In this document: positions 1,424 through 28,733 of the stretch, piece after piece
Layout: the number at the start of each line of letters is the position of its first letter
How positions within the stretch are numbered: the stretch's first letter is position 1
Assembly: GCA_964016885.1 (NCBI GenBank)
Contig: OZ024753.1
Location: 10,726,001-10,790,000 of the forward strand
From: Eledone cirrhosa
Taxonomy: Eukaryota
Length of the DNA stretch: 64,000 bases
Direction: 5' to 3'
The notes under the pieces: generated by a model
Seen by the model: the letters and a program-made list of their open reading frames with translations, nothing else
Told to the model about the DNA's origin: nothing
Databases searched by the model: none
Translations under genes and position numbers: made by a program

Positions 1424-1618
1424 ATAGGAACGAGTAGGACCCCGACGGCTGAGCTCAAGCCGTTTCGACGGCTAATTCTGGACTGAATTAGCCGTCGAAA
1501 CGGCTTGAGTTCAGCCGTCGGGGTCCTACTCGTTCCTATTACCCACTCGACTACCCTAAGTATTGAGTACTTTGGTGCGTTATGGTCCACCTGGTTCCTT
1601 ACCACATTTCCTCCGTTA
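1424..1618 (+). mobile_element. Family A fold-back element (about 55 bp arms plus conserved tail) in (TA)n
   Basis: Near-perfect palindrome 1424-1539 with loop 1479-1484, followed by the tail attacccactc...tattgagtactttggtgcgttatggtccacctgg shared with three other copies. Confidence 0.8.
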
Positions 1619-3964
1619 TATATATATATATATATATATATATATGTATATATAAGATAAATCTAAAAAACAAGAACAAAAAATAAACAATGTTTACTGC
1701 CATATATTTGTATCTTTTCTCTGGAGATATCAAGCCCTACATTCACACAACATGGCATTTAACCCCTTGAAAGTTGTTTGTGTTTGTTGTTGGGTTGCTT
1801 TTCGTCTCTCTCCATAAACTATGCGACATAAACATCTCTATTCAAAGTAGTACTTTTATACTCTTATTGTAAGTTTAAAATAAGTTGATCCTAAATATAA
1901 AATGGTGACCTTTGTTTATTTACCTTAGAATCTGAGAATGTGAGACGAAGAGGCTACGATAAGAGAATATCAACTACAAAACAAGTGAATAAATGAAATA
2001 AAATGATATAAAGTTATGTATGTGTATATATTATTTAAATATATATATACACACACACATACACACAAGTATTTATATATATACAAGTATATATATATAT
2101 ATACACACAAGTATTTGTATATATACAAGTATATATATATATACACACAAGTATTTGTATATATACAAGTATATATATATATACACACACAAGTATTTGT
2201 ATATATAAAAGTATATATATATATGTATATATATATACATATATACACACAAGTATTTTTATATATACAAGTATATATATATATATATATATATACACAT
2301 ATACACACAAGTATTTTTATATATACAAGTATATATATATATATATACACAATTATTTATATATATATGCAAGATATATATATATATACATGTATTTATA
2401 TATATATACAAGTATATATAGATATACATATTTATAAACGAATATATATACATATATACACAAATATATATACACATATATATATATATACATATATATA
2501 TATATATAAACGAATATATATACATATATACACAAATATATATATATATCACACATATATATATATACTCAAATATATATATATACTCAAATATATATAT
2601 ACTCATATATATATATATATATATATACTCATATATATATATACTCAAATATATATATATATACACACACACAACTATATACATATATATATATATATAT
2701 AAATACACGCATTCGTATACAACTATCAATTTGCCATTTAGAAATAGTTTCTTTATATAGCTAACTGGGATCTAAATAAATTTTAAAATAATTTCCAAAC
2801 ATAAAAGATATATCTAGTCTAAGGTGCAAACGAGAAGTTTAGACTTTCAGACATTTTGAAATAAAACCACGTTTAACTTCCTAGCAACAAGGAGTATCAA
2901 CTGAACCAGTGTTATCAAAGAACGCCATGACAGACTGTATATCATTGATACGGGGGTGATGTTTAGTTATATCAGGTTCACACACACACACACACACATA
3001 GACACACACACACACGCACAGACACACACTAACACAGTCTCTCTCACACACACACTCTCTCACACACACACCCTCTCTCTTCTTACACTCATACACACAC
3101 ACGCTCTATCTCACACACACCCACACAACCACTATCTCACACACACACCCACACACTCTATCTCACACACATATACCCACACTCTCACATACCTACACCC
3201 AAACACTCACCCCCACTCTCTCTCCCATACCTACACCCCACACTCTCTCACATAGCTACACCCTCACACACTCCCTCACACATGCACCCTTTCTATCTCA
3301 CCCATAGCTACACCCCCCCTACACACTCTCACCCATAGCTACCCCCCACCCCTGACCACACAAGACAACACTGTATGTGATATGTTGCTATAACAACTGC
3401 AGTTTCTCGTCTGACTCTCTCTTGAAGTCTGTTGTAACATCTTGCATCTCTTTCAGCCTCCAGTGACCCCCCCCCCTCTCTCGACCCACCTCTGTCTGTC
3501 TCTCTCTCACCCTCTCCGTCTGTCTGTCTCTCTCTCACCCTCTCCGTCTGTCTGTATCTCTCTCTCGCCCTCTCCGTCTGTCTGTCTCTCTCTCACCCTC
3601 TCCGCCAGTCTCTCTCTCTCTCGCCCTCTCCGTCTGTCTCTCTCTCTCGCCCTCTCCGTCTGTCTGTCTCTCTCTCACCATCTGTCTGTCTCTCTCTCAC
3701 CCTCTCCGTCTGGCTGTGTCTCTCTCTATCTCACCCTCTCTGTCCGTCTCTCGCTCATCCTCTCTTTCTTCCTTTTCTTCTCTCTCTCTCTGTTCCATCT
3801 ATAACTATCTATTCAAGTACATGGTTATACGTCCGTTCCAACTGAGACTACTGAAACCAGTCGAGGTGGGCTGCAGGTGATTCCTGGCTCACCTGGTATG
3901 GAGAATACCCATTGCCATTAGTGTGTATATATATATATATATATATATATATATATATATATAC

Positions 3965-4174
3965 AGGAACGAGTAGGACCCCGACGGCTGAGCTCAAGCC
4001 GTTTCGACGGCTAATTCTGGACTAAAATCATTTTAGTCCAGAATTAGCCGTCGAAACGGCTTGAGCTCAGCCGTCGGGGTCCTACTCGTTCCTATTACCC
4101 ACTCTACTACCCTAAGTATTGAGTACTTTGGTGCGTTATGGTCCACCTGATTCTTTACCACATTTCCTCCGTTA
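3965..4174 (+). mobile_element. Family A fold-back element
   Basis: Palindrome 3965-4093 centred at about 4029; same tail as the copy at 1424. Confidence 0.8.
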
Positions 4175-4189
4175 TATATATATATATAT

Positions 4190-4770
4190 TGGTAACATGT
4201 ATCCCAGTACAACCTGACCCATGGTCGGGTCGTTGGCGACTAAACTGGCAACCCCACCAAGGTTTCCTGGTGAGGAGGGTGACTTTGGACATCCTACAGG
4301 ACTAAAAACAAAACCTGTCAAAAGCAAAGGCGCTCTTAAGAGTCAAGGGCCATCCAAAATCACCGGGAGAGATGACCCCTTAGCCTTTGTCAAGGCAGAA
4401 TTCTAGGAGAAGGAAAACTCTGATATAACACCTGCAACTCTGATCGTATCCAATGATGTTGACTTGTTCTTCTTTTTGGTAAATATCATCCTAGTTAAGA
4501 GAGTGGGACTGGCTTTGTGCAGTGCCTTTGCTCACTATAAAAGCTTCACGGCACAGGTATTGCTTTATATCTGGAGATCTCTCTGCACTTGTCACATGGT
4601 ACCATGGGCCCAGCACTATGTGTCAATAATTGTCACAAGTGTAGTGTTTGTATCAGAGTTTTCAAGTCGCTGGCTGCACTAAAAAGTCACACTCGTTCAG
4701 CGCATCGGTAGGGGTTCTCCTACATGGATATAAAGTAGTGGCCGTACTCGAAAACGAGTTGGCAGCCACC
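4190..4770 (+). mobile_element. Bipartite non-autonomous RTE element, subfamily C
   Basis: RTE 5'UTR-type motif ctaggagaaggaaaactctga, a remnant C2H2 finger (CSVC..F..LAALKSH), the 3' hairpin ctcgaaaacgag and an (AT)n tail. No RT. Confidence 0.7.
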
Positions 4771-4842
4771 ATATATATAGTAATAATAATAATATATATA
4801 TATATATATATATATATATATATATATATATATATATATATG

Positions 4843-5003
4843 AAAAGAGTCAGGACCCCGACGGCTGAGCTACGGCCGGAGCTCGGCCGGAGCTCAGCCG
4901 TTGGGGTCCTGACTCTTTTCCTATTACCCACTCTACTACCCTAAGTATTGAGTACTCTGGTGCGTTATGGTCCACCTGGTATCTTACCACACTTCTTTGT
5001 TAT
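4843..5003 (+). mobile_element. Family A fold-back element, shorter arms
   Basis: Palindrome 4843-4920 centred on gagct; same tail. Confidence 0.78.
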
Positions 5004-5112
5004 ATATATATATATATTTTTTTTTTTCAATGTGGTCTACCCTTCATGGTAGGGTCCGTACAACTTGACTTTGTTATTATTTTCATTGTTAAATTAATAT
5101 ATATATATATAT

Positions 5113-26546: not shown

Positions 26547-26722
26547 AGCGGTGGATTGGCAGTATCGGTAGAGGGTCGGACGCCATGCTTTGCAGCAGAG
26601 AGTTACGGATCTTTACGATCCAGTCGAGGTAACCTTTGCCTTTCATCCTTACGGGGTCGATAAAATAAAGTACCAGTAATACACTGTGGTAATCGCTGGC
26701 CTTGTGCCAAAACTAGAAACAA
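26547..26722 (+). mobile_element. SINE family 1 (3' half also at 30543-30640)
   Basis: Matches the family 1 consensus with the B box deleted. Confidence 0.78.
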
Positions 26723-27370
26723 ATATTTACCTACAAAATAAAGCACTTTAAAAAAAATATTAAAATACAAAATTTATTGATTAGTTTTAATCTTAGATGC
26801 TGGACAAACCAGCTGATGTTTCATTTTCTCGAATCAGATTTTGTATATTTTAGTATTTAGCTTAATTTTACATCGAAACAACTCGTTACTGTGTAAAATG
26901 GTTTAATTTGGTCGAATATTGCTTTGGTGGATGATAGAGAATAATCTCCAGGTTATGTTGTTGAATAGTTCCATATGTTAAGGAAAATTAGAATGTTTGA
27001 AACCGGCAAACCATTCCTTTGTCTATATAAATATATTCCTACTGAGAAAAAATCGGATTCACGAGACTTACAGTAGGCACGAAACGAAAGAAATGGTGTA
27101 TGTGCGTATGTTAAGATACTCTTCCTGCTATTTCAAGCGTTAAACTAATATGTTTCTTCCACATACTATGTTTTATTACTTTTACACACACACACGTGAG
27201 TGAGGAGGGGGGTAACCACCGTTATCAAGGTACTCAATACATTAGTAGAGTGTAAACATCAAGTTTAATATAGAAATGACTAGAACTAGATATATTTTGA
27301 ATGAAACAGTTCTTGTCCTCTGTGTGTGTGTGTGTGTGTGTGTGTGTGTGTGTGTGTATATATATATATA

Positions 27371-27530
27371 TAATGAAGGAAGTGTGGTACGGAACCAGAT
27401 GGACCATAACGCACCAGAGTACTCAATACTTTGGGTAGTAGAGTGGGTAATAGGAAAATGTTTAACCCTCGACGTCAGAGCTCAAGCCGTTTCGGCTTGA
27501 GTTCTGCCATCGGGATTAAACATTTTCATA
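27371..27530 (-). mobile_element. Family A fold-back element, diverged copy in reverse orientation
   Basis: Tail gtggtacggaaccagatggaccataacgcaccagagtactcaatac followed by hairpin 27455-27527. Confidence 0.72.
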
Positions 27531-27546
27531 TATATATATAATGTTT

Positions 27547-27713
27547 ATCCCGGGTTCAATCGGGGGTAACCACAGTAAGTAAGGTACTCAATACAAAGCA
27601 GAGTATAAATATTTAATATAGAAAAGGCTCTACGGGACTAGAACTGTTTCATTCGAGAGAAATCATGATGATTTCTCCCGAATTAAACAGTTCTAGACCT
27701 GTAGAAGCCTTTT
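27547..27713 (-). mobile_element. Family B fold-back element (partial copy also at 27207-27320)
   Basis: Palindrome about 27620-27713 centred on aatcatgatgatt; tail shared with 18026. Confidence 0.68.
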
Positions 27714-28532
27714 CTCTCTCTCTCTCTATATATATATATATATATATATATATATATATATATATATATATATATATATATATATATGTATATGTATATG
27801 TGTGTGTGTGTGTGTGTGTGTGTGCGCGTGTGTGTGATGGTAGCTAAGATGCTTCCATAGGCAGTATGCCGGTTGAGAACTCTATGTTCTTACAGAGCAG
27901 AGTGTGATATCATATAAAACGTTATATATATAATGATTAAACACATATAAATAGGTATATAATTATATACGCATAGACACTGCTATATAATTACGCTTTT
28001 TCCTAAACACACTGTGTGAATGTGTGTGTATGTCTGCATATGTGTTTATCCAAACATGTTTCGTGTAAACATGTTTTGACTTTTATCTGACTTTTGATAA
28101 AGTCACAGCTGTTGAGTTTCTCTGATATAACCATAGGGGGTCAAACGATCATCATTCAACAGTATATTCACACATATTCAGACAGAAACTAACACACACA
28201 CACACATATATATATATATATATATATATATATATATATATATATATATATATAAATTAATAAAAACAATGAAATAAAAACAAAGAACAGGTTCCTTCCT
28301 TATATTGAAAAATTCATCATTTTACGATCGTTTCTGGGATATATATGTGTGTTGGTATGTATATCATATTAAAGATCTATGTAAAAAAAATATTACAAAT
28401 TATCAGAGAGGATATACATACCTTCACACACGTTTTTATTAATTTATCTTGACTCTGTTTTCCTATGATTTTTATCGTTGATTTTTGAATGCATATATAT
28501 ATATATATATACATATAAAACATACATATATA

Positions 28533-28733
28533 TAGTGGTAGAACACTGGAAGGTAATATCCGTAGTGGTAGAGCACTCGGTCCATGGGACGAGTTAGGTA
28601 GAAGTGGTTACACAACAGTTAGTTCACCATACCGAGAACAATTGTTTCACCTTAGCGGATCCAAGCTGAGGATCCGCTAAGGTGAAACAATTGTTCTCGG
28701 TATGGTGAACTAACTGTCGTGTAACCACTTCTA
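28533..28733. mobile_element. Family F fold-back element with hammerhead core at its centre
   Basis: 64-bp arms at 28599-28662 and 28670-28733 with loop aagctga. Reads CTGAGGA-TCC-GCTAA-GGT-GAAA-C-AATT-G-TT from 28666. Confidence 0.72.

Follow-up and report, generated by a model that had tools for sequence, protein, structure and literature searches.

The question raised by this locus is what the short palindromic elements are that sit among simple repeats in a stretch of 64,000 nucleotides from the octopod Eledone cirrhosa (NCBI GenBank assembly GCA_964016885.1, contig OZ024753.1, positions 10,726,001 to 10,790,000), which is called the window here and of which 42% is masked as simple repeat. 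A sequence-only reading had taken them for non-coding elements built around minimal hammerhead ribozymes, either mobilised by Penelope-like elements or resembling retrozymes. Our analysis indicates that they are probably 5'-truncated 3' ends left by several Penelope-like families that encode an endonuclease, most of them of the Hydra clade. Such an end comprises a pseudo-long terminal repeat (pseudo-LTR) and, in some copies, a tail; the enzyme of these families would cut TA repeats and copy only the last 100–200 bases of the RNA. The window elements are thus new octopod members of an already known type of debris.

The palindromes in (TA)n tracts are real. Each palindromic copy consists of two head-to-head arms, which span 20–160 nt across the fold-back copies in the window, and the position of the junction varies from copy to copy. 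Arms and tails terminate at TA, and (TA)3 or longer lies within 10 nt of 26 of 30 element ends, compared with 7% of random unmasked positions, although these ends were chosen partly by eye and the figure is partly circular. In families A, C, D and F a tail of about 65–80 nt is present on one arm only, and in families A, B, C, D and F the turn point is at or near the hammerhead region.

Family A is represented by four stubs, and the turn point differs among all of them. The stub at 1426–1617 (plus strand) has an inverted arm, a 6-nt turn, a sense arm that contains the 3' half of a hammerhead-like motif (GAAA at 1497) and a one-sided tail of about 80 nt, and its arms (1424–1478 and 1485–1539) match at 54 of 55 positions. 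The longest arm is found in the stub at 3964–4173 (plus strand; tail hairpin at 4101–4126), where it extends some 22 nt beyond GAAA at 4053 on the upstream side, contains no CUGANGA, and shows 99% self-complementarity over 3969–4089. No RNA source was listed for window positions 3900–4800, which carries no information about expression. A second subfamily is represented by the stub at 4842–5001 (plus strand; tail hairpin at 4930–4955), with a complex junction, a short duplication and arms (4838–4871 and 4891–4924) matching at 32 of 34 positions. In the stub at 27372–27527 (minus strand; tail hairpin at 27419–27444) the turn is at GAAA itself, and 34 of 39 positions match between the arms (27450–27489 and 27493–27531).

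Family C includes a stub at 18026–18220 (minus strand), with a tail hairpin at 18062–18082, a hammerhead 3' half at 18113–18132 and a short inverted copy, a decayed copy at 27200–27322 (minus strand; approximate ends; tail hairpin at 27230–27251), and a fold-back at 27540–27712 (minus strand; tail hairpin at 27584–27604), which turns within the CUGAUGA box and has arms (27620–27666 and 27668–27715) matching at 43 of 47 positions. The family D fold-back (28533–28733, plus strand) carries the core at 28666–28695 on the plus arm and the tail on the minus arm, with a hairpin at 28573–28594 that has a 1-nt bulge, and its arms (28599–28662 and 28670–28733) match at 63 of 64 positions. The family F fold-back (5934–6250, right end approximate) contains a decayed hammerhead on the minus strand (core at 6031), a short plus arm from GAAA at 6115 and a tail hairpin at 6183–6203, and its arms (5927–5992 and 6118–6183) match at 63 of 66 positions. 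Two further F copies on the plus strand are a decayed one at 12400–12670 (core at 12480; tail hairpin at 12585–12607; approximate ends) and one at 18250–18457, with neither fold-back nor tail, whose hammerhead (18354–18418) has an 8-bp stem I.

In family B (8935–9225, plus strand, approximate ends) a minimal type I hammerhead at 9010–9050 stands between inverted arms which run into TA-rich flank; the inversion is present and the tail is absent. The only repeat of this family in the window (11397–11872, plus strand; core 100% identical to the copy at 9015) belongs to a local duplication carrying its flanks, in which 8408–9641 recurs at 10941–12172 with identical B and H cores, and which is either a recent duplication or assembly redundancy. 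The arms of this second copy (11389–11548 and 11683–11880) match at 157 of 160 positions, and both contain about 110 nt of degenerate TA-rich flank or microsatellite. The remaining families are G (7297–7400, minus strand, core start at 7392), with a palindromic GCGC loop, an 8-bp stem I and a decayed long stem II, J (28782–29005, plus strand), with a minimal hammerhead at 28882–28917 and a related piece at 27110–27167, and H (8629–8812, minus strand), in which only a hammerhead-like 3' half (8682–8693) is recognisable and which is also found at 11219 (the duplicate) and 28323.

From the above, an inverted 5'-truncated copy, a variable junction and a one-sided tail occur together in the four A copies, C at 27540, D, and F at 5934. 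A further fold-back in (TA)n is located at 51480–51720, with arms of about 85 nt and a one-sided 50-nt tail, in which neither a hammerhead nor a tail hairpin was recognised. A long imperfect inverted pair (82%) at 52990–53310 appears to be two head-to-head copies resembling short interspersed elements.

The hammerhead cores exceed chance. A strict type I descriptor gives three matches in the window (9015, its duplicate at 11552, and 18362) and none in 40 shuffles, which bears out the hammerhead first noticed at 9010, and CUGANGA followed by GAAA occurs seven times against a mean of 0.94 by chance. A looser descriptor adds 7392 on the minus strand (family G), and a scored scan adds the decayed cores at 6031 and 12480, with five matches at a score of at least 12 against a null mean of 0.12. 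The cores at 7392 and 28886 (family J) had been missed by the sequence-only reading. Scanning for hammerhead 3' halves alone is uninformative (28 matches against a null mean of 13.7), and among the best 150 of 483 Rfam matches none reaches the gathering score and none is a hammerhead, nearly all being microRNA models on microsatellites or palindromes.

Several cores become readable with the help of sequencing reads from four public runs aligned to window positions 27000–29040. Two of these runs (X1 and X2) are one sample, possibly the window's own source, and are not independent of the window; another (X6), with another organism label, gives a few short matches to families A, D and J. For example, the core letters noted at 28666 in family D are present, although the window copy has lost stem I at its fold; run X19 has a G at 28663 in 601 of 643 plus-direction reads, and with this base stem I again pairs over 4 bp. 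This family continues at least 30 nt upstream in 50–60 contigs (agreement about 0.65). In family J, the read majority restores the core and the G10.1–C11.1 pair. The core at 18362 also holds as a hammerhead, but that copy itself is no fold-back, unlike its relative at 5934–6250.

For the family C site near 18150, the stem III proposed at first (C-AGTT-C) is unpaired. After a re-parse the family fits a hammerhead whose stem III pairs ACAG with CTGT (4 bp), with a loop of 8 nt and UA as the site: CTGATGA is on the plus arm at 18153, the CUGAUGA box is completed by loose read ends at 27666, and the 4-bp stem III follows from the majority read base at 27634. No single window copy is intact, and a hammerhead is a plausible reading of the motif. 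With its 4-bp stem III, family C could be a candidate Penelope hammerhead able to cut as a monomer. In family A, two copies agree with a hammerhead 3' half that has a GUC site and 6 bp in stem III; the hammerhead grammar claimed for this family stands only for that half. An alternative reading makes the GAAA a small hairpin loop. The loose read ends show at most 30 letters, and the upstream part of family A lies beyond them. As for C-GGCC-G-TA in the copy at 4843, it arises across the inversion junction and is an artefact.

Altogether, a type I hammerhead near the 3' end is present in families B, C, D, F, G and J, in C, D and J with letters taken from reads of other copies. A palindromic stem III and loop suited to dimers are found in B, D, F, G and J, and longer stems in C and A. 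At window positions 46415–46455 one can also make out by eye what looks like a decayed hammerhead, its stem II long and its loop CG. A generic Hydra-style pattern was also tried on viral contigs, where stems I and II are both paired in only one of 29 loci and the rest resemble chance; that one, at 3001–3034 of its contig, is a well-formed type I hammerhead with a 6-bp stem I.

For comparison, at least 119 metagenome loci (80 of them with full flanks) were collected with a pattern based on the motif table of Craig et al. (2021). The name coral-type, given for the likeness of their hammerheads to the entries from Acropora and Nematostella, refers to the motif, not the organism. These loci share the anatomy of the window elements, with a 3' boundary at TA and an optional tail. 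They include 12 head-to-head pairs, and of the 8 readable on both sides 6 have a one-sided tail and none a two-sided one. In one locus (L062), the C-terminal part of a Hydra-type open reading frame (ORF), covering the endonuclease, is located 198 nt upstream of the hammerhead and tail, and 498 longer proteins match this ORF piece. In the largest coral-type family, to which this ORF-linked copy belongs, 47 of 58 uncensored copies stop no more than 16 nt upstream of the core (measured gap-free against L062, after 16 of 74 copies cut by contig ends were dropped). Tiny stubs are therefore the usual product of a coding element, and their shortness is no proof of non-autonomy. The claim of non-coding elements built around hammerheads is not established.

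The families had been called unrelated in sequence, which is only partly true, since one bulged hairpin recurs in the tails of A, C, F and D, directly after the TA boundary. Its form is RCYC, a short stem-loop, a 1–2 nt bulge, GRGY and RC. A descriptor of it gives 7 matches in the window, all within element tails, against a null mean of 0.59 and a maximum of 3 in 100 shuffles. Because this descriptor was composed after the tails had been seen, a covariance model built from 14 coral-type tails only is the weightier test. With this model, six A and C tails rank first among 8 window matches, three of family A having E values of 2e-4 to 3e-4, while the best E value in a control of 18 phage loci (95.6 kb) is 0.25. 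Of the 110 coral-type family copies long enough to hold the hairpin, 31 have it, and it is missing from both controls. Of the 6 new Hydra consensus sequences deposited with Craig et al. (PMC8557442), 4 show it by eye. In one of these it precedes the ORF at the 5' start, in keeping with the tail being the start of the next unit. The motif TTGAGYRC alone is not significant (10 matches, with 7 of 100 shuffles as high), yet 9 of the 10 are within tails. The family A tail pattern has no match in metagenomes, and the family J pattern has none in viral contigs. Between TA tracts at 1005–1380 there are 3–4 short related repeats, two of which begin with ACTC, end with GAGTAC and are loosely hairpin-like.

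No mention of such a hairpin was seen in the available passages of Craig et al. on Hydra elements (PMC8557442), and no printed description of it was found in a literature search outside subscription papers, Repbase and bioRxiv supplements. The tail hairpin is a likely candidate signal for protein binding or for the start of reverse transcription.

The link to Penelope-like elements is supported, and anatomy and hammerhead style allow it to be narrowed to the Hydra clade; the membership of the window families is inferred from RNA motifs and layout. According to Craig et al. (2021, PMC8557442), Penelope-like elements of the Hydra clade are short, contain hammerheads and almost without exception insert in (TA)n; Hydra-1_Obim of Octopus bimaculoides is one of them. 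This also supports the connection with (TA)n. With elements such as Hydra-2_Amil, Penelope-1_NV and Hydra-1_Obim the window families have in common the (TA)n preference, the 3'-end hammerhead and presence in octopods. Families B, C and D match the style of the Hydra motif table, in which stem II is often closed with U.U, stem III has AC..GT and the cut site commonly carries U or A; in family B, for example, a 5-bp stem I is combined with a U.U-closed stem II and a palindromic stem III. By eye, the window hammerheads match none of the listed motifs, and the link to an ORF is absent in the window. Beyond Craig et al., nothing on octopus Penelope hammerheads was found in the literature searched, subscription papers and Repbase lying outside the search, and Penelope is among the abundant repeats of coleoids (Marino et al. 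2022, PMC8967140).

The anatomy also agrees with wider knowledge of Penelope insertions. Inverted pseudo-LTRs, palindromic junctions and an optional tail have been described (Arkhipova et al. 2013, PMC3846280), and many single minimal hammerheads and opposite-strand pairs 100–700 bp apart were interpreted as truncated Penelope copies (Cervera and de la Pena 2014, PMC4209133). The protein of the anole Poseidon element cuts and extends both strands at AT-rich DNA in vitro, with two internal RNA start sites bounding the tail, and hammerhead cleavage is dispensable (Frangieh et al. 2024, PMC11167929). Shared with such endonuclease-bearing insertions (PMC3846280, PMC11167929) are the inverted 5'-truncated copy, the palindromic junction, the one-sided tail, the AT-rich target and a hammerhead left uncut in the template. 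The differences are a tail of about 65–80 nt instead of 30–40, TA microhomology to the target at both ends, whereas the anole start sites are reported to be non-homologous to the cut DNA (PMC11167929), and a tail hairpin unlike the AC-rich stem-loop of the anole. Compared with the minimal Penelope hammerheads (PMC4209133), families B, D, F, G and J also have CUGANGA, GAAA, UH and a short palindromic stem III, but only J fits the extra base and the G10.1–C11.1 pair, stem II is U.U-closed in B, C and D, and stem III is 4 bp in C and 6 bp in A.

By analogy with Poseidon, the encoded enzyme would nick AT-rich DNA on both strands, and reverse transcription would begin at two internal RNA sites, before and after the tail, giving one arm with the tail and one without. 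Copying would stall in the structured hammerhead region, and the mirror arm would be formed by second priming or by fold-back on the complementary DNA. The flank of about 110 nt in both B arms would fit fold-back running into the target, or a donor RNA containing the flank. The hammerhead would be a passenger of the pseudo-LTR, uncut in the templates of these copies, since B, C and D copies retain sequence upstream of the cut site. The arms of a fold-back copy would pair and hide the core, and a folding prediction for family D indeed pairs the inverted arm with the core box, so that self-cutting of these copies is unlikely.

Several observations weigh against this assignment. No ORF is joined to any window family: in the 64-kb window, Pfam and a profile of 65 Hydra-type proteins gave nothing significant adjoining the stubs. 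The clade assignment rests on RNA motifs and not on a reverse transcriptase tree, and the Hydra-1_Obim hammerhead matches no window family by eye. CUGANGA is absent from all four family A copies, all of them truncated. The hairpin is absent from B, G, J and H, and the F and D tails were not recovered by the coral-only model. In none of the tail-bearing segments is the fold clearly more stable than in shuffles (best z −1.9), and a double change is seen in only 1 of 7 pairs of the fitted alignment, as a single event separating coral-type from window sequences, so that the conservation could be as much of sequence as of shape. Given the missing hairpin and the Penelope/Neptune-style minimal core of J, not all families need be Hydra, and for J, G and H other Penelope clades may be the source.

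Some candidates for coding remains were also considered. A peptide upstream of J was compared with the Hydra C-terminus and rejected as evidence (E 8.9). A reverse transcriptase at 32572–33234 (RVT_1) was rejected as that of a Penelope element, as endonuclease remnants nearby point to a long interspersed nuclear element (LINE); its motifs presumably are LINE-like, and the region 31534–33237 holds decayed LINE pieces, with endonuclease remnants on the minus strand and reverse transcriptase on the plus strand. At 19141–25722 there is a 27-bp minisatellite with 239 copies, in which KVSYS codons recur on the minus strand and pass into FNRNNSKVSYS. Its part at 25549–25722 is a weak separate remnant, where 49 of 120 related Hydra-type proteins have their best window match (E about 0.01 at best; profile independent E value 0.095), and the minisatellite may have grown from a dead Hydra ORF.

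The alternative that survives best treats some families, A most of all, as non-autonomous riders: short non-coding RNAs which keep the Hydra tail signal, lack a full hammerhead (lost or never possessed) and are copied in trans by a Hydra-clade protein. Family A is abundant, with a summed contig depth of 2.0e6 in the tail bin against 8–9 in unique bins (which is not a copy number), several of its subfamilies share one tail, and its four window copies lack the core box. Reads also show head-to-tail joints of D to C and of C to A, at 27458, 27629, 27666 and 28600 (a single locus or start place each), the B arms include flank DNA, and pseudo-LTRs were sufficient for trans mobilisation in a rotifer (PMC3846280). 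However, stubs of similar size dominate the ORF-linked coral-type family too, and family D extends upstream in the contigs mentioned above, which leaves riders an unlikely explanation. A related proposal about the hairpin, that it was kept from coral-type elements to octopods, lets Hydra-clade proteins pick their RNA and set both start sites, and allows hairpin-keeping stubs to be recopied in trans, family A being a ribozyme-less rider at the order of 100,000 copies, is tentative and less likely than not.

Much less probable are non-LTR retrozymes, which would self-cleave, circularise and spread as small circular RNAs. Animal retrozymes (PMC7229834; bioRxiv 10.64898/2026.07.22.740005) are likewise short, carry type I hammerheads and are non-coding as found, and they were proposed to derive from Penelope pseudo-LTRs (bioRxiv 10.64898/2026.07.22.740005). 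But they are tandem repeats of 150–450 bp (PMC7229834), and no tandem array of a hammerhead unit was seen in the window, where copies are single or head-to-head with variable junctions and the B repeat is a local duplication; the predicted pairing of the D inverted arm with the core box speaks against self-cleavage as well. On layout, therefore, the likeness to retrozymes suggested at first fails.

An origin as TA-targeting miniature inverted-repeat DNA transposons, in which the likeness to hammerheads would be incidental, is hardly credible. The elements are short, palindromic, abundant and flanked by TA, but the varying turn point already contradicts this origin, fixed terminal inverted repeats at both ends are absent, the tail is one-sided, the cores exceed chance, and the anatomy is common to coral-type elements with an ORF-linked copy. 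That the palindromes are fold-back artefacts of sequencing or assembly has next to no probability, for although TA-rich DNA is difficult to assemble and one A copy is nearly perfectly self-complementary, the arms of other copies diverged independently (34 of 39 and 43 of 47 positions), opposite-strand joints occur in contigs and raw reads of the public runs, and coral-type loci contain the same pairs.

Among neighbouring features, exons of a MuSK/Ror-like receptor kinase (kinase and kringle) are located at 42881–46294 on the minus strand. The kinase exon has 93% identity to a cluster named from Argonauta hians and at most 68% to other named proteins among the matches listed, which places the host among the octopods. 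A repeat of about 580 bp occurs in several copies (4189–4770, 9645–10250, 10325–10915 and 29500–30020) and resembles what we take to be ends of RTE-type retroposons.

In summary, truncated 3' ends of Penelope-like elements, mainly of the Hydra clade, probably account for the elements of this locus. As debris they are ordinary, and their assignment helps to classify abundant octopod repeats. The tail hairpin is the one testable addition here, a short RNA target with natural variants, and it bears on two questions about Penelope-like proteins, the choice of internal start sites and the making of head-to-head insertions.

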